Shown: positions 31,645-59,800 of the stretch, piece after piece
Layout of the letters: each line of letters starts with the position of its first letter
Position numbering within the stretch: the stretch's first letter is position 1
Source: an uncultured delta proteobacterium
Lineage (GTDB): Bacteria; Desulfobacterota; Binatia; JACPRU01
Assembly: GCA_963745025.1 (NCBI GenBank)
Contig: CAVUWD010000010.1
Coordinates: forward strand, 93,794-157,793
Direction: 5' to 3'
DNA length: 64,000 nt
Translations under genes and position numbers: made by a program
The notes under the pieces: generated by a model
What the model was told of the DNA's origin: nothing
The model's input: the letters and a program-made list of their open reading frames with translations, nothing else
Database searches by the model: none

Positions 31645-31922
31645 CCCCGGCCTTCACGCCAAGCGAACGCCGTGCTCACCGGCCGATCGGGCAGTGCGGC
31701 GCCTCGCCGACGCTCGCGCGTCGAGAGGTGCGCGCGAGGGGCTGTCGGCGCGAGACGCTGCCGACGACGGCGTACAGGCGATCTGCCCCTGCGAGCCCCT
31801 TCCGCGCGACCTCGCGGCCCCGCCGCCAAGGCGGATGTCGCCGCGATCCGCGAGGCGGAGTTCGACTGCCACCTGGAAAAGCTCTCGGCCGAGGACTATC
31901 GTGATCCGGGAGTTTCGCCGTC

Positions 31923-33344: not shown

Positions 33345-33429
33345 CACCCGCAAAGACACGAGCCCTGGTTCGCATTCCGGGGCGCACGACGTTTCCATCG
33401 CCGCGGACATCGGCTATGGGCTGGCGACC

Positions 33430-34158
33430 ATGGCAGAAACCGTCATCGAAGCGATTCGTCTCGGTCGCGGCTTCGGGTCCGTGCGGGCGCTCGGTGAGCT
33501 CGACTTGGTGGTCCACGCCGGAGAGAGCCTCGCGATCTTCGGCCCGAACGGCGCCGGCAAGACGACCCTTCTCAAGCTTCTCGCCACGGTGCTCACGCCG
33601 ACCGAGGGGTCGCTGCGGCTTTTCGGCGAGCGAGAGCTGCGGCCGGAGATCCGCCGGCGCATCGGCATGCTCAGCCACGGGAGCTTCCTCTACGGCGATC
33701 TCACGGCGGCCGAGAACCTGCACTTTTACGCGGCCCTGTTCGGCATCGGGAACCCCGCGCAGAGGGTCGAGGAGATGCTCGCCGAGGTCCGCCTGACGGC
33801 ATGGCGAGATCGCCCGGTCCGCACCTTCTCGCGCGGCATGGAACAGCGGCTGGCGCTCGCGCGAGCCTTCCTTCACGCCCCCGACCTCCTGCTCCTCGAC
33901 GAGCCCTTCTCCGGCCTCGATCCGCAGGCCGTCCTCCACCTGCAGGAGATCCTGACGCGCGCCCACCGCCAGGGAAGGACGATCGTGCTCACGACCCACG
34001 ACATCGAGAACGGGCTCGAGGTCTGTGATCGCGCGGTGATCCTCTGCGGCGGACGCATGGTCTGGCACTCGGGACGGTCCGTCCCCGCGCCGCGCGAGAT
34101 GGCGAAGATCTACCAGCGCGAGGCCGGCGAGCCGCAGGTCGGAGCCGAGACGCGCTGA
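33430..34158 (+). CDS. ccmA: haem-exporter ABC ATPase CcmA-like
   Basis: Walker A is GPNGAGKTT, there is a degenerate signature FSRGMEQRLALARA, and Walker B is LLLDEPFSGLD. ccmB and ccmC follow directly. Confidence 0.8.
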   Translation: MAETVIEAIRLGRGFGSVRALGELDLVVHAGESLAIFGPNGAGKTTLLKLLATVLTPTEGSLRLFGERELRPEIRRRIGMLSHGSFLYGDLTAAENLHFYAALFGIGNPAQRVEEMLAEVRLTAWRDRPVRTFSRGMEQRLALARAFLHAPDLLLLDEPFSGLDPQAVLHLQEILTRAHRQGRTIVLTTHDIENGLEVCDRAVILCGGRMVWHSGRSVPAPREMAKIYQREAGEPQVGAETR

Positions 34159-34163
34159 CCGCG

Positions 34164-34817
34164 ATGCTCGCCATCCTCGCCAAAGACCTGCGGATCGAGC
34201 TCCGCACCCGCGAAGGGGTGAGCTCGCTCGCCGTGCTCGGCCTCCTCGTGCTGCTGGTCTTTCAGTTCGCCTTTCCGGAGCGCCCCACGCCCGAGGCGGC
34301 CGCGGCGGCGCTCTGGCTCGCCTTCGTCCTGGCCGGGACCATCGGCGCACAGCGCACGTTCCTGCTCGAGCGCGAGAACGCCTGCATGCACGGGCTGGTG
34401 ACCGCTCCGCTCGATCCCGCCATGATCTTTGTCGCCAAGATGCTCGGCAACGTGGTGATCCTCACCGTGCTCCAGTTCCTCGTGGTGCCGTTGAGCGTGG
34501 TCTTCTTCAATGTCACGCCGACGGGTCATCTAGGCTGGTTGGCCGTGGTCTGTTTCCTCGGCAACGTCGGCTTCTCCGCGGTGACGACGCTGTTTGCCGC
34601 GATCTCGGTGCGGATCCGGGCCCGCGAGGTGATGTTGCCGCTGCTCGTCCTGCCGCTCGTCTCGCCGCTCTTGATCGCGGCCGTCAAGGCTTCGGCGCGC
34701 TTGCTCGGCGACGGCTCGGTGGCCGAGGTCTCGGTCTGGATCCAGGTGCTGGCCGCGTTCGACGTGATCTTCGCCGCCAGCGGCTGGCTCTTGTTCGAGT
34801 ACGTGGTTCGGGAATAG
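34164..34817 (+). CDS. ccmB: haem exporter membrane protein CcmB
   Basis: The 217-aa product has 6 TM helices and begins MLAILAKDLRIELRTREG... It sits between ccmA and ccmC. Confidence 0.8.
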   Translation: MLAILAKDLRIELRTREGVSSLAVLGLLVLLVFQFAFPERPTPEAAAAALWLAFVLAGTIGAQRTFLLERENACMHGLVTAPLDPAMIFVAKMLGNVVILTVLQFLVVPLSVVFFNVTPTGHLGWLAVVCFLGNVGFSAVTTLFAAISVRIRAREVMLPLLVLPLVSPLLIAAVKASARLLGDGSVAEVSVWIQVLAAFDVIFAASGWLLFEYVVRE

Positions 34818-34830
34818 AAGCGGAGGGGCG

Positions 34831-35526
34831 ATGAAACGACTTGGCTCGTGGACGGAGCGGTTGCTCCCCTTGCTCGTCGGCCCGGGAATGCTCGGTTCCC
34901 TCTACCTGATCTTCATGGTGGTGCCGACCGAGCGGGTGCAGGGGATCGTCCAGCGGATCTTCTACTTCCATGTTCCGGCGGCCTGGGCCGCCTTTCTCGG
35001 ATTCTTCGTCGTCGCGATCGCCGGCAGCCTCTTCCTGTGGAGCGGTCGCGCCGCCTACGACCGTGTCGCCCGTGCCGCAGCCGAGATCGGCATGATCTTC
35101 TGCACTCTGGTGCTCCTCACCGGCCCGATCTGGGCGCGACCGATCTGGGGGGCGTGGTGGACCTGGGATCCACGCCTCACCATGACGATGATCCTGTGGA
35201 CGATCTACGCCTCCTACCTTCTCCTGCGCGCCTTCGGCGGCGCCGAGGAGGCGGTGGCGCGCTACGCCGCCGTGCTCGGCATCGTCGGGGCGCTCGACAT
35301 CCCGCTGATCATGATCTCGGTGCGGCTGTGGCGCGGCATCCACCCGTCCGTGATCACTGCCCGTCCCGGCGAGGGGGGGCTCGCCGACCCGAGCATGCGC
35401 TTCACGCTCCTCTTCACGGGCCTCTGCTTCGTGCTTCTATTCGTTTGGATGCTGCTCGTCCGGCTGCGGGCGCTGCACGTCGAGGACGAAATCGAGGCCG
35501 TTCACCGCCGGATCCATCCCGCCTGA
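34831..35526 (+). CDS. ccmC: haem lyase/exporter subunit CcmC
   Basis: The Trp-rich motif WGAWWTWDPRL is present, with conserved His residues in the flanking loops. Confidence 0.9.
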   Translation: MKRLGSWTERLLPLLVGPGMLGSLYLIFMVVPTERVQGIVQRIFYFHVPAAWAAFLGFFVVAIAGSLFLWSGRAAYDRVARAAAEIGMIFCTLVLLTGPIWARPIWGAWWTWDPRLTMTMILWTIYASYLLLRAFGGAEEAVARYAAVLGIVGALDIPLIMISVRLWRGIHPSVITARPGEGGLADPSMRFTLLFTGLCFVLLFVWMLLVRLRALHVEDEIEAVHRRIHPA

Positions 35527-35536
35527 GGCGACCTGC

Positions 35537-35686
35537 ATGGAAAACTTCCCGTATCTCTTCTCGGCTTACGCGATCGTGTGGATCGTGCTCTTCGTCTACC
35601 TCTTCTCCCTGGATCGCCGCGGTCGCCGGGCCGAGCACGATCTCGAAGAGCTCCGTAAGCTCTTGCGCGCGAAGGAAGCGAAGTGA
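35537..35686 (+). CDS. ccmD: CcmD-like small membrane protein (49 aa)
   Basis: My own translation is MENFPYLFSAYAIVWIVLFVYLFSLDRRGRRAEHDLEELRKLLRAKEAK*. It has a single TM helix plus a basic tail and starts 10 nt after ccmC. It is below the ORF-track size cut-off. Confidence 0.6.
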   Translation: MENFPYLFSAYAIVWIVLFVYLFSLDRRGRRAEHDLEELRKLLRAKEAK

Positions 35687-35773
35687 AGCCGGTGCCGGTC
35701 GCCCCCACCCGCCGGCCCTCGCCGATTCGCGCCTCGATGCCGGGCTGATCGCCGAGCGGTTCGCTCGAGCCGC

Positions 35774-37165
35774 TCAGCCCGCCGGATCGAGCCCCCCTGC
35801 TCTGCGAGGCTCCTGGGCTTCGCCCCGAGCGTGCTGCTTCGCAAGCGCGCGCCCGGCTTCGATCAGCGCGGGCACGCCGATCCCTCGCAGGTAGTTCCCG
35901 AGCAGATGCAAGCCGGGGATGCGCGCGAGCGCGAGATCGACCGCGTCGAGGCGCGCGGGATGGGCCAGGTCGTAGCGCGGCAGAACCGAGCGATAGCGAA
36001 GCACGCGCGACCAGGGCGGGTCGCCGGACAGGCCGAGCAGCGGGAAGACTTCGCGCTCCACGATGGCGAGAATCTCCGGGTCGGACATCTCGGCCACTTC
36101 CGGATGCCGTGCGCCGCCGAGCAGGGTCCTCAGGAGCACCGTGCCGCGAGGCGCGCAGTCGGGATCGATGGAGGAGGAGAACAGCGTGCCGAGATGGAGG
36201 CGCTTCTCGCGCGAGGGGACGAGATAGCCGAAGCCGTCGAGCGGGTGCGCGACGCGCTCGCGCGGCCAAGCGTGGATCACGCAGGCGAGGCTCTCGAAGG
36301 AGATCGTCGCCAGCTCGCGCGATGCCTCCGGGCTCGCTTCACCGAGCAGCTCGGCCGCCGCTCGCGCGGACGTGGCGACGACCACGCGTGCGCAGTCGAA
36401 GAGCTCGCCGCCGGCGATCACGCGGAAGCGGGCGCCCTGTCTCCGCAGCGACTCCACCGGCGTCGAGAGCCTCAAGCGCGGCAGGAGGCTCTCGGCGAGC
36501 GCGCGCGTCAGCGATCCCATGCCTCCGCGCGGCTTGCACAAGGTCGGCGCGGCAGACGCGGCGCGGTCGCGCTTTCTCTTGAACAACGCCTTGGTGACGC
36601 TCCCGTGATCCTCGACCATCCGCGCGAGGTCAGGGAACGTCGCCCGCAGCGAGAGCTGCTCCGGGTCGCCCGCCCAGACGCCGCTGACGAACGGGTCGAG
36701 CAGCGATTCCACGACCTCTTGTCCGAAGCGGTGGCGCACGAACTCCGCCAGCGAGCCGCCGAGCGCGACCCGCGGGTCGCGGCGGAACTCCCCGAGAATC
36801 CGCAGTTTGCCACCCCAGGAGAGCAGCGGGCTCGACAAGAAGGAGAGCGGCGAGAGCGCGACCAGGTGTCCTCGATGGCAAAGAAAGCGCTTGTGCGCAC
36901 CGCGCGGAGCCGGCACGAGCTCGAGGGCGAGCTCCGAGAAGAGCGCCACGACCTCGGGCGATCCCGACCGCAGCGCTTCGGGCCCGCGCTCGTAGCGCAG
37001 CTCGCCCCCCGCGCCGTCCCAGACGCCCCGCTCGGTGCGAACCCAGCCGCCGGTCGAGTCGGAGGCTTCGACCACCGCGAGGTCGGCATCGGGGCCTCGC
37101 GCGTGCGCGTAGGCGAGGCCCGAGATCCCCGCGCCGATCACCAGCGTGTCGAGCGAGCGGCTCAT
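35774..37165 (-). CDS. hemY: protoporphyrinogen/coproporphyrinogen oxidase, FAD-dependent (HemY type)
   Basis: MSRSLDTLVIGAGISGLAYA is followed by ...VEASDSTGGWV..., ...FDCARVVVATSA... and ...LHLLGNYLRGIGVPALIEAG. The start at 37163-37165 is in frame with the 657-aa track ORF, whose upstream part is Arg-rich. Confidence 0.85.
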   Translation of the reverse strand: MSRSLDTLVIGAGISGLAYAHARGPDADLAVVEASDSTGGWVRTERGVWDGAGGELRYERGPEALRSGSPEVVALFSELALELVPAPRGAHKRFLCHRGHLVALSPLSFLSSPLLSWGGKLRILGEFRRDPRVALGGSLAEFVRHRFGQEVVESLLDPFVSGVWAGDPEQLSLRATFPDLARMVEDHGSVTKALFKRKRDRAASAAPTLCKPRGGMGSLTRALAESLLPRLRLSTPVESLRRQGARFRVIAGGELFDCARVVVATSARAAAELLGEASPEASRELATISFESLACVIHAWPRERVAHPLDGFGYLVPSREKRLHLGTLFSSSIDPDCAPRGTVLLRTLLGGARHPEVAEMSDPEILAIVEREVFPLLGLSGDPPWSRVLRYRSVLPRYDLAHPARLDAVDLALARIPGLHLLGNYLRGIGVPALIEAGRALAKQHARGEAQEPRRAGGLDPAG

Positions 37166-37304
37166 ACGGGGGCCTCGCGCGCGCACACCGCGCGATGCTC
37201 GGCGAGGTGCCGGCCGGCTTGCCGCATGAGCCGGACGGGAGTTCGCGGAACCAGCTCGCGGCGCAGCGCCCGCAGGAGCAATCGACCGGGAGCGGTCGGG
37301 TGGA

Positions 37305-38603
37305 TCACGCGGGGCGCGCCTCCCCGAGCGCTTGCAGCGACGCCTGGAGCGCGGCGGCCGCCTGCTCGAGGTGGCTCGTCTCGTGCGCCGTCGAAACGAA
37401 GGCGACCTCGTAGTAGGAGGGCGCGAGCCAGATCCCGCGTTGCAGAAGCAGCGGATGGATCTCCGCGTAGCGCTCCGCGCCGCGCGGGTCGATGCGGTGG
37501 TAGGCGCGGGGCGCGGGAGCCGGCTCGAGCCAGAGCCCGAGCACGGAGCCGACGCGCGAGACGCATCCCGGCACCCCGGCGCGCTCGAACGCGAGCCGGA
37601 TGCCCTGCTCGAAGCGCTCGCCCAGATCCTCGAGCCGCGCGTACGCGCCGGGCCGGTCGAGCTCGCGCAGCGTAGCCAGACCCGCCGCCATCGCCAACGG
37701 ATTGCCGGAGAGCGTGCCGGCCTGGTAGACGGGCCCGAGCGGAGCAACGTGCCGCATGAGGTCTTCGCGCGCTAGATAGGCGCCGACGGGCATGCCGCCG
37801 CCGAGGATCTTGCCGAGCGTCACGACGTCCGGCCGGATGCCGGAGATCTCGCTCATCCCGCCCGGCGCGACGCGGAAGCCGCTGATCACCTCGTCGAAGA
37901 TCAGCAGAGCGCCGTGTTGGTGCGTCAGCTCGCGCAACGTCTGCAGGAACTCGCGACGCTGCACCAGGAGACCGGCGTTCGCGGGCAGCGGCTCGATCAC
38001 CACGGCGGCGATCTCGGCTCCCTTGCGCGCGAAGAGCTCGCGAGCGGCCGCTTCGTCGTCGAGCGGCAGCACCTCCGTCAGCGCCGTGACCTCGGGCGGC
38101 ACTCCTGCGGACGAGGGCGTGCCGAAGGTCGCGAGCCCGGAGCCCCCCTTCACGAGCAGCCCGTCGGAGTGTCCGTGGTAGCAACCCTCGAACTTGACGA
38201 GGCGCGAGCGTCCCGTTGCGCCGCGCGCGAGACGCACCGCGCTCATCACGGCCTCGGTGCCGGTCGAGACGAAACGCAACTGGTCGCAGAAGGGGAAGCG
38301 CGCGAGCGCGGCCTCCGCGAGCTCGATTTCCGCGGCACAGGTGGCTCCGAAGGAGAGGCCGTCGCGCGCGGCGCGCGTCACCGCCTCGACCACGGCGGGA
38401 TGCGCATGGCCGAGGATCAACGGGCCCCACGAGCCCACGAAGTCGACGTAGGTGCGACCCTCGGTGTCGGTGACGAGCGCACCGGAGCCCCGAGCGACGA
38501 ACCGCGGGTCGCCGCGGACGGCGCGAAACGCCCGCACCGGGCTCGACACGCCGCCCGGCATTACCTTGCGCGCTCGCGCGAACAGATCCCCGGTGTTCTT
38601 CAT
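37305..38603 (-). CDS. hemL: glutamate-1-semialdehyde 2,1-aminomutase
   Basis: The N-terminus is MKNTGDLFARARKVMPGGVSSPVRAF. The PLP-lysine context is TLGKILGGGMPVGAY. GGAGGAGG lies 5 nt before the ATG at 38603. Confidence 0.93.
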   Translation of the reverse strand: MKNTGDLFARARKVMPGGVSSPVRAFRAVRGDPRFVARGSGALVTDTEGRTYVDFVGSWGPLILGHAHPAVVEAVTRAARDGLSFGATCAAEIELAEAALARFPFCDQLRFVSTGTEAVMSAVRLARGATGRSRLVKFEGCYHGHSDGLLVKGGSGLATFGTPSSAGVPPEVTALTEVLPLDDEAAARELFARKGAEIAAVVIEPLPANAGLLVQRREFLQTLRELTHQHGALLIFDEVISGFRVAPGGMSEISGIRPDVVTLGKILGGGMPVGAYLAREDLMRHVAPLGPVYQAGTLSGNPLAMAAGLATLRELDRPGAYARLEDLGERFEQGIRLAFERAGVPGCVSRVGSVLGLWLEPAPAPRAYHRIDPRGAERYAEIHPLLLQRGIWLAPSYYEVAFVSTAHETSHLEQAAAALQASLQALGEARPA

Positions 38604-38816: not shown

Positions 38817-39950
38817 ATGAGCCAGAACCCCGATTCTCGCCGCTTCTGTCCGTCCTGCCGCGCCCCCGCGGTCTCCCGAGCGAGCTTCTGCGCCGCTTGT
38901 GGCGCGGGACTTCCCGGCGGGTCGACGCCGTGGCTGCGCCCGACCCTGCCCGCCTACGCCGTGCTCGCGGCCTTTTTCGCCGTCGGCCTCGGACTCTGGA
39001 TCTCGCTGCTGGCTCCGGGCGGCTCGCCGCAGAGTCCGCCGCTCGCCGAGCAGGACCCCGGCGATAAGCCCTCGGCCGGCCGCGAGCTTCCGTCCGATCA
39101 TCCTCCTATCCCGCTGCCGGGCGACGTCGCGAAGCTCCTCGGCGATCTCGAGCGCCAGGCGGAGGCGGCGCCAAAGGACGTTGCCACCTGGAAGCGACTC
39201 GCCGAGCACGAGTACCGCGCGGGGCGGGTCGACAAGCAGTACCTGGCGAAGGCCGAGAAGGCGTTCCGCCACATCCTCGAGCTCTCCCCGGATGACCGCG
39301 ATGCCATTCGCGGGCTCGGCAACCTCGACTTCGACCGCGACGATTATGCATCGGCCATCACTCACTACTCCCGCTATCTCGAGCTCGACCCGAAGGACTC
39401 CGGCGCGCGCACCGATCTCGGCACCATGTACCTTTATGCCGGCGATGTCGCGAAGGCGATCGCCGAGTATCAAAGGGTGATTGCCGCCGAGCCCGCCTAC
39501 TTCGAGGCGCACTTCAATCTCGGCCTCGCCTATCGCCGCAGCGGCGACGAAGACAAAGCGAAGGAGAGCTTGGAGCGCGCCCGTTCGTTCGCTCCGGATG
39601 AGCGCTCGAAGCAGCAGGTCGCGGCGGCGCTCGCCGGGCCCGGCGGCGCGCCTCCTGCGGGTGGAGCGAAGCTCTCCTTCCAGCAGATGATCGAGCGGGG
39701 CCTGCGGGGGCATCCGATCGTTGGGCCCAAGATCGTCGGCTTCGAATGGCCGGGGCCGACTTCCGGGCAGGTGAAGCTCGACGGCTTCCCGCTGGAGGAG
39801 ATGCCGGCGCCGGTCCGCGAGCGGTTCCTCGGTCGGCTGGAGAAGGATCTCGCCGATGCGCGCGCCAAGAGCGGCGAATCGGGCGAGGCGCAGCTCGCGC
39901 TCGTCGACCGGGCGAGCGGCCGCGTCATGGCCACCGTCGTCGTTCGTTGA
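38817..39950 (+). CDS. membrane-anchored zinc-ribbon / TPR-repeat protein
   Basis: The N-terminal CPSC...CAAC forms a zinc ribbon, followed by one TM helix (AYAVLAAFFAVGLGLWISLL) and about four TPR repeats (DAIRGLGNLDFDRDDYASAITHYSRYLELDPKD...). The stop overlaps the TTG start of the next gene (TTGA). Confidence 0.75.
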   Translation: MSQNPDSRRFCPSCRAPAVSRASFCAACGAGLPGGSTPWLRPTLPAYAVLAAFFAVGLGLWISLLAPGGSPQSPPLAEQDPGDKPSAGRELPSDHPPIPLPGDVAKLLGDLERQAEAAPKDVATWKRLAEHEYRAGRVDKQYLAKAEKAFRHILELSPDDRDAIRGLGNLDFDRDDYASAITHYSRYLELDPKDSGARTDLGTMYLYAGDVAKAIAEYQRVIAAEPAYFEAHFNLGLAYRRSGDEDKAKESLERARSFAPDERSKQQVAAALAGPGGAPPAGGAKLSFQQMIERGLRGHPIVGPKIVGFEWPGPTSGQVKLDGFPLEEMPAPVRERFLGRLEKDLADARAKSGESGEAQLALVDRASGRVMATVVVR

Positions 39951-42199
39951 ACGTTTTCACGATCCGGAATTCCGACCGCGCGGTGCTGCTGTCGGGCGGC
40001 GTCGCGACGGCGCTCGTGCTCGGCGGCATCGTCGGGATCGGCCTGTTCATCCGCTGTTCGTTCTTCCGCAACTTCGTCAATCCCGAGGGTGGGTTCTTCT
40101 TTTACAGCGTCGACGCCCACGATCACCTGCGGCGCGTCATGCTGGGGATTCAGGCGTTCCCGGCCGTGCCCGTGCGTGATTCGTACATGGGCTATCCCGT
40201 TGGCACGGGCCAGATCTGGTCGCCGCTCTTCGATTACATACTCGCCGCCATCGCGGTTGTCGCGTGCCGCTCGCGGGCGGCGGTCGAAACATTGTGCTTC
40301 TTCGCCAATCCCGCCTACGCCGGCCTGACGCTGTTGCTGCTCTTCGTCGTCGCGCGCAGGTTGTTGAGCCACACGCCCGCCGCGCTGGCCGCCGCCTTTC
40401 TTCTCGCGCTCTCGCCTGGGCACATCTCTTACACTCACCCGATGAACTTCGACCACCATGTTTTCGAGCCCATAGCCATTCTCGTCCTCACGGCCCTCGT
40501 CTTCCTGGAGCGGGACGATCGGTTGAGCATCGCCGGCACGTGCGGGGTTGCCGTCGCGCTGGTGATCACCATTTTCATGTGGCGAGGCAGCACCATCTAC
40601 TGGGGGCTCACCTTCCTGCGCGTGCTGATCTGGTCGCTGGCGGCGCGTCGACCGCGGCTCGCCCGCGAGTATGCCCGTGGCTTTGCGGCGGCGGCCGTGG
40701 CGCTCGCTGTCTTCGTCTGGATGGATCCGTGGGGCAACGCGCGCAACGTCTCTTTCGGGATCGTTTCCGGTTTTCACGTCATCCTGCTCGGCTTGGCGGC
40801 GCTATGCCTCGGCGTCGTAGGCCGTGCGGCCGACCGCCGGCAGAGCGCCATCGCGCTGGCCGCGGTTGCCCTGGGGGTCCTGCTTTCACTGACACTGTCG
40901 CCGGTCCGCGAGGTCCTCCACAGCCTCTCGGCCGGTCTGGCCTTCTTCGGCCGCAGCGGAGACCCATGGTTGGCTTCCAACAGTGAATTGAAAGGCACCT
41001 TTTATCACGGAGGCTTTTTCGCCGGCGCCACGTACCTGACCTTGTACTGGTTCCTCGCCCCGGGCGCGGTTGCGCACGCCTTCGGGCGCTGGCTGCGCGC
41101 GGAGGGAAGCGACAGGCAGCTCTTTGCCTTCTGCTTCATCGGTCCCTTGTTCGCCATGGGGTTGGTGCTGCGCTACGTGCACATCGCCGGTCTGGCGACG
41201 GCCTTTGCCGGCGGGTACCTGTTCGCACTGGCTTGGGAGAAATGGCGCCAGCCCATGGCCAGAGCCGGAGCCGTCGCATCGCTGCTCCTGCTGCTGCTGC
41301 CCTCTCTGCCTCATTACCAGGACACCCTGCAAAGCCGACTACCCGATCCCATGCGAATGGGGCTCTTTGGTTCCAAAGGCGTGCTGACCTGGCTGCGGGA
41401 CAACACGCCCAAGACCGCGCACTATCTGGATCCGATCGCGGTGCCGGAATACGGCGTCATGGCGGAGTGGGACCTGGGGGCCATGATCTATCAGGTGGCC
41501 GAGCGACCGGCCGTCTCTACGGCTTTCGGATGGGAGACGCACGGATTCTACGAAGAGAACACCTTCATGGCGACGACCGAGGCGGAGGTCGCCGAGCAAA
41601 TTCTGAACGACAATCGGGTGCGGTACGTGCTGCTGCGGGCGTATCAGGCGCGGGCGATGCACTTCGCCATCGCCGAATACGGCGTCAAGGAAGGGAAGAT
41701 CCCACGCGCGCTGGTCGGCACGTATCAGCCCGACAAATCAATATACACTCGGCTCATGTACAATGACGGCGCGGCCTATCGCTCGGGCGCAGAGATCGTG
41801 CCCGGTCTCGAGCAGTACCGCCTGCTCTACGAATCCGACTACCTCGCCAGCGACGACCCGGGCCACGGGCTCAGCTACTACAAGGTGTTCGAGTTCGTTC
41901 GAGGCGCGCGCGTCCTAGGAACGGCCACGCCAGGAAGCGACGTCGCCCTCGAACTGCCTCTCCTGACCTCCCGGCGTCGACTCCTTCGATACACCAACTG
42001 GACGAAGGCGACGCAAGACGGCCGCTTCATGCTCACCCTGCCGTACGCGACCAACGTGGCGCAGGGCGACACCGCGGCACAGGGTGCGTACGCGATCGTC
42101 GACGACAACGGGCGCAGAGCCAGCCTGGAAGTGACGGAAGCGGATGTCGTCTCCGGCAACTCGCTCAGCGTGATACTGGCCGAGCCCGAGGGGAGATGA
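39947..42199 (+). CDS. STT3/AglB/PglB-like oligosaccharyltransferase homologue (GT-C fold)
   Basis: About 13 TM helices followed by a soluble C-domain. The first-loop acidic motif is SVDAHDHLRRV (compare DxDxxxHxR). An EL5-like SNSE matches SVSE/TIxE. VMAEWDLGAMI stands in place of WWDYG. The TTG start at 39947 was chosen because the ATG at 39746 would overlap 200 nt of the TPR gene. Confidence 0.7.
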   Translation: MNVFTIRNSDRAVLLSGGVATALVLGGIVGIGLFIRCSFFRNFVNPEGGFFFYSVDAHDHLRRVMLGIQAFPAVPVRDSYMGYPVGTGQIWSPLFDYILAAIAVVACRSRAAVETLCFFANPAYAGLTLLLLFVVARRLLSHTPAALAAAFLLALSPGHISYTHPMNFDHHVFEPIAILVLTALVFLERDDRLSIAGTCGVAVALVITIFMWRGSTIYWGLTFLRVLIWSLAARRPRLAREYARGFAAAAVALAVFVWMDPWGNARNVSFGIVSGFHVILLGLAALCLGVVGRAADRRQSAIALAAVALGVLLSLTLSPVREVLHSLSAGLAFFGRSGDPWLASNSELKGTFYHGGFFAGATYLTLYWFLAPGAVAHAFGRWLRAEGSDRQLFAFCFIGPLFAMGLVLRYVHIAGLATAFAGGYLFALAWEKWRQPMARAGAVASLLLLLLPSLPHYQDTLQSRLPDPMRMGLFGSKGVLTWLRDNTPKTAHYLDPIAVPEYGVMAEWDLGAMIYQVAERPAVSTAFGWETHGFYEENTFMATTEAEVAEQILNDNRVRYVLLRAYQARAMHFAIAEYGVKEGKIPRALVGTYQPDKSIYTRLMYNDGAAYRSGAEIVPGLEQYRLLYESDYLASDDPGHGLSYYKVFEFVRGARVLGTATPGSDVALELPLLTSRRRLLRYTNWTKATQDGRFMLTLPYATNVAQGDTAAQGAYAIVDDNGRRASLEVTEADVVSGNSLSVILAEPEGR

Positions 42200-52537: not shown

Positions 52538-52966
52538 TCACTTCTTCAACGTTCGCATGTAATTGACGACGTCCCACATCTCTGTCGGCTCCATGAGCTT
52601 CTTGCCCGCAGGCATAGGCTTCTTCCCCTCCGCGATCTTCCAGTAGAGCTCGCCGTCGCTCTGCTTGACGATCGACGGATCCGTGAGGACCTTCATCCGA
52701 TCCTTCTCTTCCTTCTTCATCTCGGCCACCTTCTTGCCGTCGCTCTGGCCGTTGGCCCCGTGACAATCCGTGCATTGGGCGTCGTACGCCTCCTTGCCGG
52801 CCGCGAGAGACTCCTCGTTCGTCGCTTGGGGGTTCTTTTTCTGAGCCTCGGCGGCGGGCGCGGTCCACTCTTTCTCCGCGGCGATGATCAGCGAAGCGCC
52901 GAAGGCGGTGGTTCCGACGATCGTCAGGATGGCCAGCCAACTCTGTTGACGAATAGATCTCACCAT
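52538..52966 (-). CDS. membrane-anchored/secreted monohaem class I cytochrome c
   Basis: N-terminal hydrophobic helix, one CTDCH motif, and the distal Met context KKPMPAG. Confidence 0.8.
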   Translation of the reverse strand: MVRSIRQQSWLAILTIVGTTAFGASLIIAAEKEWTAPAAEAQKKNPQATNEESLAAGKEAYDAQCTDCHGANGQSDGKKVAEMKKEEKDRMKVLTDPSIVKQSDGELYWKIAEGKKPMPAGKKLMEPTEMWDVVNYMRTLKK

Positions 52967-53291
52967 TTCTTCTTCCTTTCAGGTTGCCAATCGTTGGACG
53001 ATGACGCGCGAATCTCGTCTCCTCGATCGAACCGGCGGAGGACGCGCCCGCGCGAAATTGTCGCGGCCGGTCAAGTAGCCGTTCAGCGTAGACTCTTTTC
53101 TTCGCGAACCGTCTGCCACATCGCACTCCGCGCAGATGCAAGAGCCGTGCGTGATATGGGCCACTCTCGTAGCAACGATGATTGCGGCATTCAAGGTTGA
53201 GAAAACGAACGGAGCTTCTTAGATCCGGGAATTTGCGTCCTCCGATTTTCCCGAAGAGCGGAACCAAGGGGAACCTCCGCCACGTTGTTTC

Positions 53292-54067
53292 GTGTTCGGA
53301 CGCGCGAAGCTGGCGGTGGCACACCAAATGCTCGCGGGGATTGCCGTGTCGCTACGCAAGTACGGTTTCTATCTGGGTCTCGGCTTGTTCATGGGCATTT
53401 CGCTGGCGATCCTCGCTTTCGAACTCTCGGGCCGGAGGGGATCGGCGATGGAGAAGACGCCGGCCGCCATGCCGCGCACTCCCGGCGATTTCCGTTCGCT
53501 CTTCGCCTTCAACCCCTTGAAGGGCCTGGGAGAGGGTAGCGGCGACGTCCACGCCAAGATGCCGCCGTTCAGCGAAGGCACTTGGCCCTGTTCGGATTGC
53601 CACAATGGCAAGAAGCTGAAGGACAATCCGATCCGGCGCGTTCTGGTGAAAGAACACTCGGGCATCACGCTCCACCACGGTGAAGAAGATGAGAGTCTGT
53701 GGTGCCTCGATTGTCACGATTTCAAGAACCGGGATCGGCTCCGTCTGGCGGGCGGTACGCTCGTCGAATTTGAGGAGTCCGATCGCCTCTGCGGCCAATG
53801 CCACGGACGGATCCACCGCGACTGGAAAGCGGGGGTTCACGGGCAGCGCACCGGCTTCTGGAACGGCCCAAGCGCTACCTCCTGTGCCTGAACTGTCACT
53901 GGCCGCACTCGCCGCGCTTCGACGCCCTCGAGCCGCTGCCGCCGCCCGTGCGTCCCGAGCAGATCGGGCTCGGGCTCTTGCGGGCGAAGGCCGGCGGGGT
54001 CGAGCGCCCCGCCGATGCCCCAGCCGCCAGCGAAGGAGCAAAGACCGCCGAAGGAGCCAAGCAATGA
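53292..54067 (+). pseudogene. membrane-anchored tetra-haem cytochrome c (NrfB/DsrJ/CbcS-like), reading frame broken by a 1-nt indel near 53868
   Basis: The first frame gives a TM helix plus CSDCH, CLDCH, CGQCH...GVHGQRTGFWNGP and stops at 53891. The +1 frame continues KRYLLCLNCHWPHSPRFDALEPLPPPVRPEQI (fourth haem) up to the TGA at 54065-54067, which overlaps the next ATG. Possible starts are the GTG at 53292 or the ATG at 53328. Confidence 0.7.
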
Positions 54068-54966
54068 GCGAGCAGGACGGCGCGGAGGGAATCAGCCGGC
54101 GGGAGGCCCTCACTTTGGGCACGGCCACGCTCGCGGCGCTGTTCGTTTCGGCGTGCACCGGCGAGTCGATCGAGGCGTTCTTCCAGAAGCGGTTCGACGA
54201 GCTGTCTCCTGACGAGGTCAAGAGAGTGCTGGCGCGGCTCGAAGCCAGGTACACTCAGCGCTTCGGCAAGAAGGTCACGGTCGATGACACGCCGGCGGAG
54301 GAGGGCGTGGTCTTCGGGTACGGGCTGGACCTCTCCCGCTGCATCGGTTGCCGGCGCTGCGTGTACGCGTGCGTCAACGAGAACAACCAATCGCGAGACC
54401 CGCAGATCCAATGGATCCGGGTGCTCCGGCAGCAGCGCGAAAAGGGCGTCGTCATCGAAGGAGCCGAGCAGTATTACGACGCCAAGAAGGTGCCGGAAGA
54501 GGGCTTCTTCTACATCCCGGTGCAGTGTCAGCAATGTGAAAATCCCCCCTGCACCAGGGTCTGCCCCGTCGGCGCCACGTGGAAGGAAAAGGACGGAATC
54601 GTCGTCATCGACTACGACTGGTGCATCGGTTGCCGATGCTGCGTCGCCGCGTGCCCGTACGGGGCGCGTCACATGAACTGGGGCGACCCGTTCCTCCCCG
54701 CCAAAGAGCTGAACCCGAACACCCATTACCTCGGCAATCGCCCGCGCCCTCGGGGCGTCGTCGAGAAGTGCACGTTCTGCATCCAGCGCGTCCGCAAAGG
54801 ACGCTATCCGGCGTGCGTGGAGATCTGCCCGGTCGGCGCCCGCAAGTTCGGGAACCTGCTCGACCCGAAGAGCGAGATCCGATACCTGCTCGAGCACAAG
54901 CGGGTCCTCGTGTTGAAAGCCGAGCTCAAGACCGAGCCGAAGTTCTTCTACTTCTACGGGATCTGA
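54064..54966 (+). CDS. Tat-exported 4x[4Fe-4S] ferredoxin subunit (NrfC/PsrB/DsrO/CbcT-like)
   Basis: The twin-arginine signal is ISRREALTLGTATLAAL. Four Cys clusters are present: CIGCRRCVYAC, CQQCENPPCTRVCP, CIGCRCCVAACP and CTFCIQR...CVEICP. Confidence 0.9.
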   Translation: MSEQDGAEGISRREALTLGTATLAALFVSACTGESIEAFFQKRFDELSPDEVKRVLARLEARYTQRFGKKVTVDDTPAEEGVVFGYGLDLSRCIGCRRCVYACVNENNQSRDPQIQWIRVLRQQREKGVVIEGAEQYYDAKKVPEEGFFYIPVQCQQCENPPCTRVCPVGATWKEKDGIVVIDYDWCIGCRCCVAACPYGARHMNWGDPFLPAKELNPNTHYLGNRPRPRGVVEKCTFCIQRVRKGRYPACVEICPVGARKFGNLLDPKSEIRYLLEHKRVLVLKAELKTEPKFFYFYGI

Positions 54967-54987
54967 CGCGGCGATAGGGACAAAATC

Positions 54988-56244
54988 GTGAACCAATTCC
55001 GCTTCCTCGTTCAGGCGCTCCGCTACGCATTTCGCGGCGGGCTGTTCTATTACCTCTGGCTCGCATTTCTCGTCGCTCTGGTGGCGTGGGGTGGCGCTGC
55101 CTATCTCGAGCAGCTGAGGCGCGGGCTGATCGTCACGGCGATGCGCGACCAGGCGTCGTGGGCGTACTACATCGGCAACTTCACGTTCCTCGACGGCGTG
55201 GCGGCCTCGGCGGTGATCGTCGTGATCCCTGCGTTCATCTACGACTGGAAGCCGATCAAGGAGGTCGCGATCCTCGCGGAGATCCTGGCGATCAGCGCCA
55301 TCGTGATGTCCTTGCTCTTCGTCATCGTGGACCTGGGTCGGCCCGACCAGCTGTGGCACTTCTACAAGCTCAACGTTCCCTCGTCCCTGCTCGCCTGGGA
55401 CGTCTGCGTCCAAAACTTCTATTTCATGGTGAACATCGTCATCGTCGCGTACGTGCTCTATCGCACCTATAACGGCCGGCACGTCCGCGAGGGTTTCTTC
55501 GTGCCCCTGGTGCTGCTCTCGATCCCGGCCGCGATCGCGATCGTCGCGGTCACCGCCTTCATCTACAACGGACTTGCCGCACGTCCGTTCTGGAATGCAT
55601 CGATTCTGGCCCCCCGATTCATCGCGAGCGCTTTCTGCTCCGGCCCGGCGATCCTCCTGATCCTCTTCCAGATCCTTCAGCGCACGACCAAGCTCGAGAT
55701 CAAGGACGAGGCCATCTGGAAAATCGCCGAGCTCATGGCCTACGCCATGTTCGTGAACCTCTTCCTGCTCGGTGCCGAGGTCTTCAAGGAGGTCTACTCG
55801 AGGACCGAGCACATGATTCACTTCAACTACCTCTTCTGGGGCATCGGCGGTCATCGGGCTCTCGTCCCCTACGCGTGGGCAGCAGTCGCGGCGAGCGCGA
55901 CCGCTTTTGTCCTCCTGCTGATCCCGGCGACCCGCACGAACCCGTTCACCCTGAACCTCGGGTGCCTGTTGATCTACTCGGGGGTCTACATCGAGAAGGG
56001 AATGGGGCTCGTGATCCCCGGCCTCACTCCGGACACGCTCGGCGAGATCTACGAGTACGTGCCGACGTGGTACGAGGTGCGGATCGGTGCGGGCATCTTC
56101 GCGATCGGATTCCTCGTCTACACGATCATCACCAAGATCGCCGTCGGAATCCTGATCGGAGAGCTGCGCACCGAAGCGGCGCGCGCCGCCGAGATCGCGG
56201 AAGCGGCCGGCCGTCGCCTGAAGCCCTCGCTGCACTCGGTCTGA
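54988..56244 (+). CDS. NrfD/PsrC-family integral membrane quinol-interacting subunit
   Basis: The 418-aa product has about 10 TM helices. The pattern LFVIVDLGRPDQLWHF is typical of the NrfD family. It starts at a GTG 21 nt after the FeS gene. Confidence 0.88.
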   Translation: MNQFRFLVQALRYAFRGGLFYYLWLAFLVALVAWGGAAYLEQLRRGLIVTAMRDQASWAYYIGNFTFLDGVAASAVIVVIPAFIYDWKPIKEVAILAEILAISAIVMSLLFVIVDLGRPDQLWHFYKLNVPSSLLAWDVCVQNFYFMVNIVIVAYVLYRTYNGRHVREGFFVPLVLLSIPAAIAIVAVTAFIYNGLAARPFWNASILAPRFIASAFCSGPAILLILFQILQRTTKLEIKDEAIWKIAELMAYAMFVNLFLLGAEVFKEVYSRTEHMIHFNYLFWGIGGHRALVPYAWAAVAASATAFVLLLIPATRTNPFTLNLGCLLIYSGVYIEKGMGLVIPGLTPDTLGEIYEYVPTWYEVRIGAGIFAIGFLVYTIITKIAVGILIGELRTEAARAAEIAEAAGRRLKPSLHSV

Positions 56245-56357
56245 AGCGCCCTGACGATCGCTGGCACTGGCATAGTTCGTGGTTATGTAGCTGAGTCGGA
56301 GGGTGTTCTTCGAAGCGGGAGTCGATCGATCACCGAGGTTTATGATCTTTTCCTTCT

Positions 56358-56490
56358 GTCCCTATCGTCTAGTGGCCCAGGACGCCATTTCATGGCTTCG
56401 GCAGGCGCGTGAATTCCGGTTTCCGGGAACGATTTTTGCGGCCGAGGCCTGCTCACAGTGGAGACCGAGGTTCAAATCCTCGTAGGGACA
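56358..56490 (+). tRNA. tRNA-Glu-like gene with a 60-nt insertion in the anticodon loop (intron-like or disrupted)
   Basis: The acceptor stem GTCCCTA (56358-64) pairs perfectly with TAGGGAC (56483-89). The D-arm is GTCT-AGTGGCCCA-GGAC. The T-arm is CGAGG-TTCAAAT-CCTCG (56466-82). The anticodon stem CCATT (56385-89) pairs with AGTGG (56457-61) but encloses 67 nt instead of 7. The body resembles E. coli tRNA-Glu. No CCA is encoded. Confidence 0.6.
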
Positions 56491-56896
56491 TAATCGAGTG
56501 GTGAGATGTAAAGCCGTCTGCGAGTTTTCGCTCTAAGATGTCGATAATACTGCTGTTTTTGCCACGAGGCTCGTCTTGGCGGGGAGAGGGATTTTGCTCT
56601 GTATTAGGTAATAGTAAGCGGTGCTACTGCGCCGCCGCTGTGCGTCCGCCGATTATCGTCGATCTGCCAGCAAGCGCAGTGTACAAGGCGGGCGGTTCCT
56701 AGAGTTGGGAAACTTATTCGAAAATTTTCTAAAATTTGAAAAACTAATGCTACTTGCTTTCTAGCTCATAATGAGTGAAATCTCATATTTCTCAGGTGAA
56801 TTCCTCTTGCCGCCATGCCGGAGTTACGGACCCGCCGATCGATTCGTCGGAAGGTATAATTTTTGCTCTCTTTTTTCCCAGACGGAGGAGCCATCG

Positions 56897-59800
56897 ATGA
56901 TAGCGAGAACGAAGACCCGGTCGGTGAAAGCCCCGCTCGTGACCGCACTGACCGTCTTGGTCATGCTCCTGGCCACTGGTCCGGTGGGCGCCTTGTACCC
57001 GCCCAACGGCGCGAAGCCGACTGGGGACTCCGCTGATCCTTACATGAACCCGGATGACGGCATGTGCGTCGTCGGCGTCGCAGCCGACGGCACGATGCGC
57101 GTCGATTGGTCGATCACGAACGCGCGGGATTGCGTTGCGTATACGACCGGGCTCGGCACGATGACGGGGGTCGACATCACCACTTCGAGCACCTGCGGTG
57201 CTCTCGGAACCGGGTTGTGCAACACCTCGGCACTTTGCACTCGACCGAACGGAAGCGCGGTCTGGAATGCCGCGGCATTGAAGTGTTTCGATGTCTCTAG
57301 CTGCCTGAGCGCGGGCGCCGACAACGCGACCTGCACGGCAGCCGGTGTACCGTTGCCGTGCTGTACCGGCAACGGGACCGGAACGTGCGGCGTGAACGAC
57401 GGCTACAGGCACGCCTTCGCCACGACCAACACGTGCGTCAACGCTGCCGACCCCACGACCGCCATCAGCCTGGTGGATCTCGACCGCACGCTGCCCATGT
57501 GCCAATCCAAGGGCGGGACGACGCTGTCGCCGATCCCAGGGACGTGCGTGGCGTACGGCTGGGTGTACAGGAACAGGAACGCCGATGGCCCCCCCCCGAC
57601 GCTCCCGGTTACGGGGGTTGGCGTCGGACACGACCGACGGCGTGCAGGCCAGCGCCGGTCTGGGCTTTTGTTACACGGCGATTCGAATGACCGGAGGTGG
57701 CTATACTCCGCCTAGCCCCATTACCCCCACCTCCTGTCCATCCTGGCACAACAGTCCGACCGGCAACGCGGCCGAGTGGCCCGCTTGCCAGAGTAGCACC
57801 ACGGGATGCCAGACCCCGCAGTCGTACGATGCCGGCCTGGGTTGGTCATTCTCGACCCCCAATTGCGTGTATAACTTCGGCATACTGGGCACCCAAAATG
57901 CAAACGTAACCAACGCCGCTGGTGTAGTGACCCCAGCGGGTACACTTGTGGATCTCACCGGCATCGACAACCAAGGCGATTGTCTCGCAGCAGGCTATTC
58001 CTGGGACAACTGGCTCCCCTTCCCTGGCCCGACAGGCATCAGGACCAGTGCCAGTGGAGGAGATTACGCCGGGATGCCCCCAGGTCCGCCCGCCGCCCAG
58101 ATCGTGAAATTCGATGCGCTCACTCCGATCGAAGGCGGCGGGGGCGAATTCTTCAGCGGCACCGGCTTCAACTGTCTGAGGTGCCATGCCGATCAGTCGA
58201 GGGCGTTCCAGGAGCGGAACAAGCCCGGCTTCGTCAAGACGAGGCACCAGAAGGCCGGCGACGCGATCGGCAAGCCGTTCCAGCCCTTTTTCAACGATGC
58301 CGACTCGTCTTGGGGGCTGCAGGGCGTTCAGTGTACAATGTGCCATAGCACCGCGAGGCCTTCGCAGGACGACTTGATTCAGGTTGTCCCCGCGGGAGTG
58401 GTTGGCCCGCCTGCCGCTGGCGCCCCCAAGAGCGCCACGGGCCACAACCAGACCGAATACGGGGCGCACTTGCTCGACATCTGCTACACGTGCCACGGCA
58501 CCCCGGCTCAACCCCCCCTCGACCCAACAATCGTAAACCCGGCGGAGCACATCCCGGTGTCCAATGGGGACTTCAGATTGACATTGAATAATCCCGGACC
58601 GGCGACCTCCAATCTTTTCAATAACATACCGCCGCTACCAGTACCGCCAAACGTGGGGGGGCTGGCGCCAATCATGAACCAGTTCCTGAACAGCCCGCAT
58701 GCACAGTACGCGGGCTCGAGCCTCAAGGTCGACATCGGGAACAAGGACAACTACGGTAGCACCTTCGAGGGCTATGTCTGCCGGACGAGCAGTACTGTCG
58801 GCGGAGGCTCCATCATCACCACGGTCTACAGGAACGGCGTGGCGGAGAAGATTCCGAACGTCGACAGCACGGACAACCCGGCTTGCACGAACGCGGCCGA
58901 CGGGTCGGCGACGAGCGGCGCCGGCGGCTTCTGGGTGAAGGACGGCGAAACTAGCCCAGGTGTTCCCACCGATACTGCGCAGGGCAACTGCATGACCTGC
59001 CACGACGTCCACTGGGCGCTGGCTTCCACCGATAAGGACAAGCCCTGCATTCAATCCAGAGGGCGAGCCGTTCCGGAGAGAATGCACCACCTGCCACGTG
59101 AACCCCGGAACGTCGGCGTCGGGCGCGCCGCAGATCGACCTGGCGACGATCAACCACCTGAAGACGGCGGGCACGCCACTCGAGAATTGGGCGACCGATC
59201 CCGACTCAGCGTGCGAGACCTGCCACATGCCGAAATCAGGCGGTGAGTCGAGTAACACCTCGCCCATGCACCTCTGGCGGATCAATACCGACCCGAATTA
59301 CCACACGATGGGAGCCACGGAGGCCAACCCGCGCCCGATCGGGGAAGGCTACACCGACGCGGCGTGGGTGGACATCGAGCACGCGTGCGGTCAGTGCCAC
59401 GGAACCGACGGGAATCGACGGCGCGATATCTGCACGTGGACTGCGCGCCCCCTCGTAGCACGGAAGTGCTGGCGACGGTCGCGAAGGGCATGCATAGCGC
59501 CACGGCCGTTTCGTACTTCGTGAACTTCAACATCGGCCCGGTCAGTGGACTGCAAGTCCCCGTCACCGCCACCGTCGACTGCGGCGGGGCGACGTGCCCG
59601 AGCTTCACGTACGACTGGGACTGGGGAGACGGCACGCAGGCGCTGGGCGCTACCGCGAGCGAGACCCACACGTACGCGAGCGGAGGATCGAAATCGATCA
59701 CGTTGACCGTGCTATTGAACGGCAGTAGTGTGGGTTCCGCTACCCGGAGCGTCAGGTTGTTCAATCCGGATCTCCCCCCGACCGCCCTGGGCCACTGCAG

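Follow-up and report, generated by a model that had tools for sequence, protein, structure and literature searches.

The stretch of DNA analysed here (hereafter the window) is 64,000 nt long and belongs to a contig (CAVUWD010000010.1) of an uncultured delta proteobacterium of the Binatia. Between positions 56358 and 56490 it carries a gene for an RNA that has the body of a tRNA-Glu and a surplus of 60 nt in its anticodon loop. A preliminary description, made from the letters of the window, had singled out this gene and proposed three readings for it: a short bacterial tRNA intervening sequence of a new kind, a regulatory RNA derived from a tRNA, or a tRNA pseudogene disrupted by a small insertion. 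The intergenic region that holds the gene measures 526 nt (56245-56770). The low-G+C patch noted there at the time is real (0.49-0.56 versus 0.60-0.69 in the flanks), and so is its location between cytochrome operons, with a DsrO/DsrP-like cytochrome/Fe-S/NrfD operon upstream and multihaem cytochrome genes downstream. The parts of the gene are listed below.

56298-56357, + strand: conserved 60-nt stretch immediately 5' of the RNA; TATGAT at 56341-56346; no sigma-54 motif at the position usual in the family described below
56358-56490, + strand: whole tRNA-Glu-like RNA gene, tRNA positions 1-73 plus the 60-nt surplus in the anticodon loop (read from sequence)
56358-56364, + strand: acceptor stem 5' strand GTCCCTA, pairing with TAGGGAC (56483-56489) through 7 Watson-Crick pairs
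56367-56383, + strand: D arm GTCT-AGTGGCCCA-GGAC, with U11-A24 and U13-G22
56385-56389, + strand: anticodon stem 5' strand CCATT, 5 pairs with 56457-56461, one of them G-U
56390-56393, + strand: unpaired TCAT joining the anticodon stem to the insert hairpin (from folding)
56394-56449, + strand: insert hairpin; basal 9-bp helix (56394-56402 with 56441-56449) and inner helices that include TTCCGG-TTT-CCGGGA (56414-56428)
56450-56456, + strand: TG + CTC + A + C, would-be positions 32-38, with the anticodon CUC at 56452-56454
56457-56461, + strand: anticodon stem 3' strand AGTGG (read from sequence)
56462-56482, + strand: 4-nt variable region AGAC (A46 present, position 47 absent) and T arm CGAGG-TTCAAAT-CCTCG (the arm itself at 56466-56482)
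56483-56490, + strand: acceptor 3' strand TAGGGAC and discriminator A (A56490); CCA not encoded

Anatomy of the window RNA

The 5' half of the gene reads GTCCCTA-TC-GTCT-AGTGGCCCA-GGAC-G-CCATT. It is followed by 67 nt (56390-56456), where a canonical anticodon loop has 7, and then by the 3' half, AGTGG-AGAC-CGAGG-TTCAAAT-CCTCG-TAGGGAC-A. The perfect 7-bp acceptor stem, the canonical D arm and the perfect T arm with its TTCAAAT loop were found where the preliminary description had placed them; its 5-bp anticodon stem around 67 nt was found as well, with one pair being G-U. The body is that of a bacterial-type tRNA-Glu: it has G1-C72, U2-A71, a U13-G22 pair closing the D stem and a 4-nt variable region. 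Compared with a canonical tRNA-Glu, the gene has the cloverleaf, the 7-bp acceptor stem, the D arm with G18G19 and the T arm with a TTCRAAT loop; what it does not have is the 7-nt anticodon loop with U33 and A37. The final seven enclosed nucleotides, TGCTCAC, give G33, the anticodon CUC, A37 and C38 in the window copy, in agreement with the earlier reading.

The minimum free energy fold of the insert has a 9-bp helix of GGCTTCGGC (56394-56402) with GCCGAGGCC (56441-56449). The free energy of the hairpin is -28.6 kcal/mol (z = -2.4), and the geometry of its basal helix agrees with that of all the relatives described below. Of the fold proposed at the outset, the inner hairpin TTCCGG-TTT-CCGGGA is thus present; the 6-bp helix GCAGGC/GCCTGC (56401-56406 with 56447-56452) is possible but disfavoured, as it excludes the 9-bp helix and would pair C34 of the anticodon. 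Two other candidates for the insert were rejected. The inner hairpin followed by ATTTTTG scores as terminator-like; this reading was dropped because the T run is broken in a close relative (locus L095) and absent in other members of the family. As to a repeat or mobile element, the insert is single-copy in the window and plasmids gave no match.

Standard detectors pass over the gene. ARAGORN in default mode reported no gene at the window RNA. Rfam, used with gathering scores and with E-values up to 10, gave no tRNA match for it and no match, group I introns included, in the window or in 12 family loci; the sole Rfam appearance was mascRNA at E = 0.52, which is not significant. When the 60 surplus nucleotides are deleted, ARAGORN calls a tRNA-Glu(ctc). 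The intron mode of ARAGORN, which had been suggested as a check, does report the locus, but as a tRNA-Met(CAT) with a 39-nt intron and a long variable arm; this is implausible, and the Glu reading, which is supported by the family, was preferred. In 24 loci of the family the same mode gave tRNA-Glu(ctc) or tRNA-Glu(ttc) with an intron at position 33-36. A pattern made of the D arm, a gap and the T loop had a single match in the window and none among 100 shuffles, which excludes a chance origin.

A family of tRNA-Glu-like genes with a hairpin in the anticodon loop

Two pattern scans (Glu-type D arm, a gap of 31-91 nt, T loop) were carried out on one genome per species and on public metagenomes. 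Nothing in the patterns constrained the triplet, A46, the 3' side of the acceptor stem, the anticodon stem or the outer pairs of the T stem; since the gap and a largely fixed 5' half were required, orthologues lacking an insert and members that have diverged further are not visible to these scans. Together they gave 37 loci, or 35 distinct sequences, with 5' and 3' halves of the window type. Ten of these came from the genome collection: four are from bins labelled Candidatus Binatia (L007, L054, L056, L061), one is from a bin labelled Myxococcales (L052) and five are from bins named 'Deltaproteobacteria bacterium' (L005, L016, L032, L038, L076). The remaining members come from soil, sediment and groundwater metagenomes. 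There is good support for placing the window copy in a family of tRNA-Glu(YUC) paralogues that is conserved and inherited vertically, and whose named bins are Binatia-like. The family is hitherto undescribed, and its design is explained by no known bacterial tRNA intron or tRNA-like RNA; the literature searched yielded no paper on tRNA genes driven by sigma-54, on bacterial tRNAs with short inserts other than group I, or on the TIGR04053 family (see below).

The members share a common anatomy. The 5' strand of the anticodon stem is followed by 0-5 unpaired nucleotides, a hairpin with a basal helix of 4-12 bp, 0-3 nt, the triplet, a purine, one base and then the 3' strand. The hairpin is located just 5' of the anticodon, at or beside position 33/34, in every member, with a sequence that varies from one subgroup to another. 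There are 30-60 nt more than in a 7-nt loop, the window copy having the longest surplus. The 7-nt loop is in this way turned into an asymmetric internal loop between the anticodon stem and the new helix, with 0-5 nt on one strand opposite 0-3 nt + YUC + R + N on the other. The hairpin has a C/U-rich 5' arm (UCCYUUC) and a G/A-rich 3' arm (GRAAGGA) in most subgroups, the exceptions being the window copy, L095, L094 and L052.

The positions around the insert were counted over the 35 sequences. The triplet is CTC in 31, TTC in three and CTT in one, so that a Glu anticodon is kept in 34. U33, a base that almost all decoding tRNAs share, shows no conservation, the triplet being preceded by G in 17 members, A in 12, U in five and C in one. 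A37 is not conserved either, with A in 16 members and G in 19. CCA is encoded in 25 of them. The identity set of the glutamyl-tRNA synthetase (GluRS) of Escherichia coli consists of G1-C72, U2-A71, U11-A24, U13-G22..A46, the absence of position 47 and a YUC anticodon. It is present in sequence in the family (four of its bases, U11, U13, G22 and A24, were fixed by the patterns): G1-C72 is found in 34 members, and U2-A71, A46 and the 4-nt variable region in all 35.

Evidence of selection

In an alignment of 24 sequences, 98.4% of the cloverleaf cells were paired and seven pairs varied on both sides. The observed covariation score was reached by none of 500 shuffles, and pairing fell to 35-57% when the partners were slid. 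All the acceptor, D and T pairs are kept in the 35 sequences, and compensatory changes were seen at 7-66, 29-41, 30-40, 49-65, 50-64 and 51-63. The hairpin behaves in the same manner: its arms form on the average 7.8 consecutive pairs with their own partner versus 6.4 with the arms of other members (p = 7e-5), and a compensatory double change (C-G to U-A) in the basal helix sets L081 apart from L096.

Comparison of the window with its close relative L095 is also informative. The RNA is identical at 128 of 133 positions (96%), the insert at 64 of 67 and the tRNA body at 64 of 66; the 60 nt upstream of the gene are identical at 57 positions, versus 45-72% identity for the other intergenic DNA (72% further upstream). 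The anticodon stems are CCATT/AGTGG in the window and CCACT/GGTGG in L095, both changes preserving pairing. Whether relatives carry the insert had been put forward as a check; L095 carries it, with the identity just given, and every other family member has a hairpin. L122, an independent assembly, is 99.2% identical to window positions 52764-57865 and its RNA is identical at all 133 positions, which excludes an assembly error.

Promoter and position in the transcription unit

Most members of the family are preceded by the signature of a sigma-54 promoter. An element of the -24/-12 type was found at -29/-28 from G1 in 24 of 33 distinct upstream regions (for instance L005, L054, L056, L081, L084, L094 and L098), and L076 would be the 25th if AGG is accepted for TGG. 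The threshold was a GG-N10-GC core with at least 8 of 11 matches to TGGCAC-N5-TTGCW and a T at -29/-28; in the same loci, such matches occur with a background rate of 5.7e-4 per position. The element of the family reads TGGYAY-N5-TTTGCT, and the sequences around it are unalignable between subgroups. From the usual -24/-12 spacing, transcription is predicted to start about 3 nt before the tRNA. We know of no other tRNA-type gene that is sigma-54-driven. In one large subgroup, sigma-54 response regulators and histidine kinases adjoin the RNA. The window copy and L095 lack the element (it is absent from 56245-56357 in the window, where no GG-N10-GC core was found) and have in its place the conserved 60-nt stretch with TATGAT; the promoter scan found no sigma-70 consensus upstream of the window RNA, TATGAT not being accepted as a sigma-70 promoter.

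A protein gene on the same strand begins 20-300 nt 3' of the RNA in every locus, and no obvious terminator was seen between the two in any of them; the RNA heads a transcription unit. The preliminary description had noted neither the family, nor the sigma-54 promoter at a fixed place in most of its members, nor the operon-leading position of the RNA.

Upstream of the next gene, the window has an AT-rich element of about 57 nt with internal palindromes (56695-56752, GTTCCTAGAGTTGGGAAACTTATTCGAAAATTTTCTAAAATTTGAAAAACTAATGCTA). It is conserved in L095, where there are two tandem copies, and might serve the cytochrome operon as an operator or promoter region.

Neighbouring genes, loss and decay

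The genes of the window that bear on the context of the RNA, together with one unusual protein, are as follows.

9437-11833, - strand: sigma-54 response regulator
31905-37771: haem / cytochrome c maturation cluster with hemN (TIGR00538, 558 bits), ccmB, ccmC and protoporphyrinogen oxidase (minus strand)
39602-42196: large protein with AglB/STT3 oligosaccharyltransferase domains, uncommon in bacteria
53650-54963: DsrO-like gene, upstream of the DsrP-like gene
54988-56244, + strand: NrfD-family membrane protein, DsrP-like (Pfam PF03916; NCBIfam DsrP, 381 bits, above cut-off), last gene of the cytochrome/Fe-S/NrfD operon
56771-57715, + strand: next same-strand gene, Cys-rich, no family match; then multihaem cytochrome genes up to 60939

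In the other loci, genes related to haem recur next to the RNA. A ccmC-ccmD-ccmE-ccmF-ccmG-ccmH array lies directly 3' of it in L081/L109, L096, L056, L082 and L089. In eight others (L038, L054, L061, L086, L088, L090, L091 and L103) this place is taken by a radical SAM/SPASM gene of TIGR04053, whose next-best match is the haem b synthase AhbD. Elsewhere a histidine kinase gene is found there, with ccmC 3-4 kb further on in L076 and L105. On the other side, a hemerythrin gene directly precedes the RNA in L038, L086, L103 and L080 (with an Fe-S assembly protein also upstream in L086), multihaem cytochromes are found upstream in L109, and some loci have an upstream gene for a secreted protein with a carboxypeptidase-regulatory-like domain. 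No hemA (glutamyl-tRNA reductase, GluTR) gene was seen adjoining a copy at any locus.

One oddity was noted in L109: a member of the '23S rRNA intervening sequence protein' family (PF05635) is encoded at positions 6248-6616, 3.2 kb upstream of the RNA and inside the multihaem cytochrome cluster. This is probably coincidental.

The RNA is not found everywhere its neighbours are. Five Binatia-type loci recovered as ccmC homologues (L106-L108, L118 and L119) have ccmABC and no copy of the RNA. DsrP homologues with 78-80% identity (L111 and L112) have no tRNA downstream; an uninterrupted tRNA at the same locus in relatives, which had been named as a sign of a simple pseudogene, was therefore not found, these loci offering nothing to compare. 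In one sub-lineage, decayed copies are present upstream of ccmC (L110, about 9830-9960, and L113-L117). Mutations have hit the triplet, both the T and the D loop and the 3' side of the acceptor stem in these copies, which retain the sigma-54 element and the hairpin. Such copies are what a true pseudogene of the family looks like, and the window copy is quite different. The gene is accessory.

Other tRNA-Glu-type genes with unusual anticodon arms

The same scan, with its Glu-specific D arm, brought up other intact tRNA-Glu-type genes whose anticodon arms are aberrant; they come from Acidobacteriota, Planctomycetota, Chloroflexota, Actinomycetota and one cyanobacterium. Three from Acidobacteriota (L023 91-164, L024 4474-4548 and L043 6067-6141) are intact tRNA-type genes with 7/7 acceptor pairs, an encoded CCA and a Glu-like D arm. 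Their anticodon loop is of 28-29 nt and starts with CU-CAU or CU-CUA, followed by a conserved GAAGTRGRGCGGYTCAGAG; they look like a second family of bacterial tRNAs with a short insert, this one 3' of the anticodon. L024 adjoins a reverse transcriptase and an antitoxin gene.

In nine Streptomyces loci (L009, L011, L036, L057, L058, L060, L062, L064 and L075), the anticodon loop is replaced by a closed hairpin (e.g. CGGG-TTCG-CCCG), and tRNA-Glu-like sequences of the same sort were found in other Actinomycetota (L014, L053, L037, L006 and L018). Acceptor pairing is 3-4/7 in most of the Streptomyces copies and 7/7 in L018, L006 and L037. Five singletons have 15-70 extra nucleotides in the anticodon arm: L001 (Tepidisphaeraceae), L042 (Phycisphaeraceae), L047 (Prochloron), L069 (Caldilineaceae) and L029 (Shewanella jiangmenensis). 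All have a Glu-type D arm and T loop, with 7/7 acceptor pairs save L029 (6/7), which is a tRNA-Glu(TTC) whose anticodon is followed by a hairpin of about 15 nt.

Matches of another kind correspond to tandem partial duplications. In loci of the candidate phyla radiation (for instance L020, L028, L034, L050, L055, L072 and L073), the 5' half of a tRNA-Glu stands directly before a complete tRNA-Glu; in L022, L041, L066 and L074 a complete tRNA-Glu is followed by an extra 3' half. These arrangements may be attachment-site scars.

What the RNA may do

The reading that we place first, tentatively and short of an even chance of its being right, is that of a conditionally expressed tRNA-Glu paralogue that could be charged by GluRS, would be unable to decode and would possibly feed or regulate haem synthesis. 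The RNA would be transcribed conditionally, in most members from the sigma-54 promoter, and, as the first element of its operon, would be cut out like a tRNA. It would probably be glutamylated, since the body elements and the YUC triplet read by the E. coli GluRS are kept and CCA is usually encoded. The hairpin, combined with the lost conservation of U33 and A37, would make it unfit for ribosomal decoding, so that it would act as a non-proteinogenic tRNA-Glu. Our best guess is that it would supply Glu-tRNA to GluTR for haem synthesis without competing with translation; alternatively, it might titrate or regulate the GluTR step. This guess is based on the ccmC-F-H genes, the AhbD-like radical SAM gene, hemerythrin and the multihaem cytochromes found as neighbours. 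GluTR and EF-Tu compete for Glu-tRNA-Glu, and in Acidithiobacillus ferrooxidans the tRNA-Glu isoacceptors are divided by use (PMC4284751); the single specialised isoacceptor there is translation-only and not a GluTR substrate (PMC4284751).

Several points weigh against a charged paralogue that does not decode. All the functional steps beyond the sequence anatomy are inferred. The search patterns prescribed positions 3-25, in the 5' half of the gene, together with the T loop, so that an unvarying D arm cannot count as independent evidence. The anticodon-binding domain of GluRS may be unable to accommodate an anticodon that sits in an internal loop, and the hairpin by itself would not block binding of EF-Tu. 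In about 25 of the 35 members (counted by eye), removal of the insert could restore a 7-nt loop with U33, which fits excision. As for haem, the nearest ccm and hem genes of the window are about 20 kb from the RNA, none being adjacent, and Binatia-type contigs with a full ccmABCDEFGH operon have no copy of the RNA within 10 kb. The haem neighbourhood, though striking, could be inherited synteny or chance: it is not proof, because the genomes are cytochrome-rich and the loci related by descent. Lastly, the gene is dispensable in the sub-lineage in which its copies have decayed.

The reading of the RNA as the precursor of an ordinary tRNA, which we hold possible but doubtful, is that the hairpin is a short intervening sequence, cut out at the internal loop, with the ends then rejoined (an RtcB-type ligase could do this) or remaining nicked, as happens with rRNA intervening sequences processed by RNase III; a tRNA-Glu(CUC) able to decode would result, and the insert would be the first non-group-I intron of a bacterial tRNA. 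The insert is indeed exactly in the anticodon loop, beside the wobble base, and is conserved in structure only, not in sequence. The Glu anticodon is maintained, G precedes the triplet in 17 of the 35 members, removal of the paired hairpin alone leaves a 7-nt N-U-CUC-R-N in the L032, L086, L016, L080, L056, L061 and L094 types, and ARAGORN in intron mode gives Glu(ctc)/(ttc) for the 24 loci mentioned above. However, U33 is obtained by no single deletion in about 10 of the 35 members (read by eye), which represent 5-6 lineages and include the window, and position 37 is G in 19, which is unusual for a bacterial tRNA-Glu; both argue against a simple intron. The junctions vary in length (0-5 nt and 0-3 nt) with no fixed cleavage geometry evident, there is neither a bulge-helix-bulge motif nor a group I core, and 387 kb of related DNA yielded no further interrupted tRNA, which is weak evidence because few tRNA genes are present there. 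A tRNA nicked beside the wobble base, moreover, is normally inactive. The specific version in which a protein-dependent cut-and-join route (an internal-loop endonuclease plus an RtcB-type ligase) removes the hairpin, as the first non-group-I tRNA splicing in bacteria, appears unlikely to us; with it, the sigma-54 promoter would make the supply of a tRNA conditional.

It is likewise rather improbable, in our estimate, that the RNA is a leader or regulatory RNA that is tRNA-like and never aminoacylated. The cloverleaf would then be an RNase P/3'-processing signal or a protein decoy at the 5' end of sigma-54 operons, and the hairpin a functional add-on such as a protein-binding site or an anti-Shine-Dalgarno mimic. 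The constant place of the RNA before a same-strand gene 20-300 nt away, with the promoter immediately in front, is consistent with this, as are the decayed copies (L110, L113-L117), which keep promoter and hairpin and lose the acceptor stem and the triplet, and the C/U-rich 5' arm (UCCYUUC) and GGAGG-like 3' arm of many members. But a processing signal needs no conserved Glu triplet, CCA or GluRS body determinants; the asymmetry of the arms is missing in the window, L095, L094 and L052, and the downstream genes vary by subgroup while the RNA is constant. A dead gene or an artefact, i.e. a tRNA-Glu pseudogene hit by a small insertion or an assembly error, is extremely improbable. The window copy has G33 and no CCA, standard detectors reject it, and truly decayed copies do exist in one sub-lineage; these, however, look different (broken acceptor stem, triplet lost, mutated T loop), the same sequence is present in the independent assembly L122, identity to L095 is 96% versus 45-72% in the flanks, and 35 distinct members keep their cloverleaf pairs through compensatory change. 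For the window copy, the family with its compensatory changes, the conservation in L095 and the identity with L122 refute the pseudogene; of the three readings proposed at the outset, the short intervening sequence and the regulatory RNA both survive, and they are inseparable by sequence alone. We ranked the charged, non-decoding paralogue first because it explains the conservation of identity elements, the loss of U33 and A37, and the maintained hairpin in a conditional, accessory gene. Excision to a decoding tRNA explains the first of these but not the second; a processing signal or leader explains the third but not the first.

Comparison with known systems

The family fails a defining test of a canonical tRNA-Glu, of a group I intron and of a bulge-helix-bulge intron. 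The bacterial tRNA introns described so far are of group I, a statement of the preliminary description that agrees with the literature searched. The tRNAs they interrupt are, as here, bacterial, with the interruption in the anticodon loop near the wobble base. For the U at -1 and the final G of a group I intron the family gives a mixed picture, with a U before the insert and a G at its end in about half of the members (a 5' T is available in about 20 of the 35 and G precedes the triplet in 17; the window copy has the G and no U). Group I introns, however, have a P3-P9 core and at least about 200 nt, whereas the inserts of the family are simple hairpins of 30-60 nt, too small for such a core and unrelated between subgroups. 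The short pre-tRNA introns of archaea and eukaryotes are alike in size range and in that the anticodon arm is extended to a longer helix, but they are found at position 37/38, whereas the family has its insert 5' of the anticodon, in a bacterial-type tRNA body. The bulge-helix-bulge by which such introns are recognised (two 3-nt bulges around a 4-bp helix) is absent: the family has single strands flanking a helix of 4-12 bp and no second bulge. To our knowledge, no splicing endonuclease is known in Bacteria.

The intervening sequences of 23S and 16S rRNA, which are removed by RNase III with no re-ligation, are also variable hairpins in the loop of a stable RNA, lineage-specific and lost in some relatives, and the family does have such a hairpin, differing among relatives. 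The host here is a tRNA, though, in which a nick beside the anticodon is expected to inactivate decoding, and cleavage is in this case hypothetical. Among tRNA-like folds that do not decode (as would be the case for the family), the YrlA Y RNAs of the rsr-yrlBA-rtcBA operon, transfer-messenger RNA (tmRNA) and mascRNA come to mind. YrlA is under sigma-54 control. Its tRNA-like module, however, is distal, on a stem formed by the RNA's own ends, whereas the ends of the family RNA form a normal acceptor stem, often with CCA.

As to function, the staphylococcal tRNA-Gly used for peptidoglycan is a non-proteinogenic tRNA. We know of no sigma-54 promoter for a non-proteinogenic or use-partitioned tRNA. 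The staphylococcal tRNA-Gly and the A. ferrooxidans tRNA-Glu isoacceptors (PMC4284751) are extra paralogues that keep synthetase identity, as in the functional model that we favour for the family, with its proposed tie to the demand for haem in bacteria rich in cytochromes. The known examples differ in having a normal 7-nt anticodon loop, with a subtler escape from translation and no hairpin in the loop. By the position of its insert the family resembles group I-interrupted tRNAs; the size recalls archaeal introns, the variability rRNA intervening sequences and the inferred logic non-proteinogenic tRNAs.

Significance

Bacterial tRNA genes are assumed to be uninterrupted save for group I introns, and annotation relies on this assumption; the family is invisible to default ARAGORN and to Rfam. 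If the hairpin is removed, there would be an unknown bacterial route of tRNA splicing or of repair-type maturation. If it stays, a tRNA would be kept for its acceptor function while being structurally barred from the ribosome, and sigma-54 would turn on the RNA along with genes for cytochrome c maturation and others related to haem; the long-discussed split of Glu-tRNA between translation and tetrapyrrole synthesis would then become directly testable. The RNA is small and the predictions concerning it are sharp: mature size, charging, use by GluTR and dependence on RpoN.

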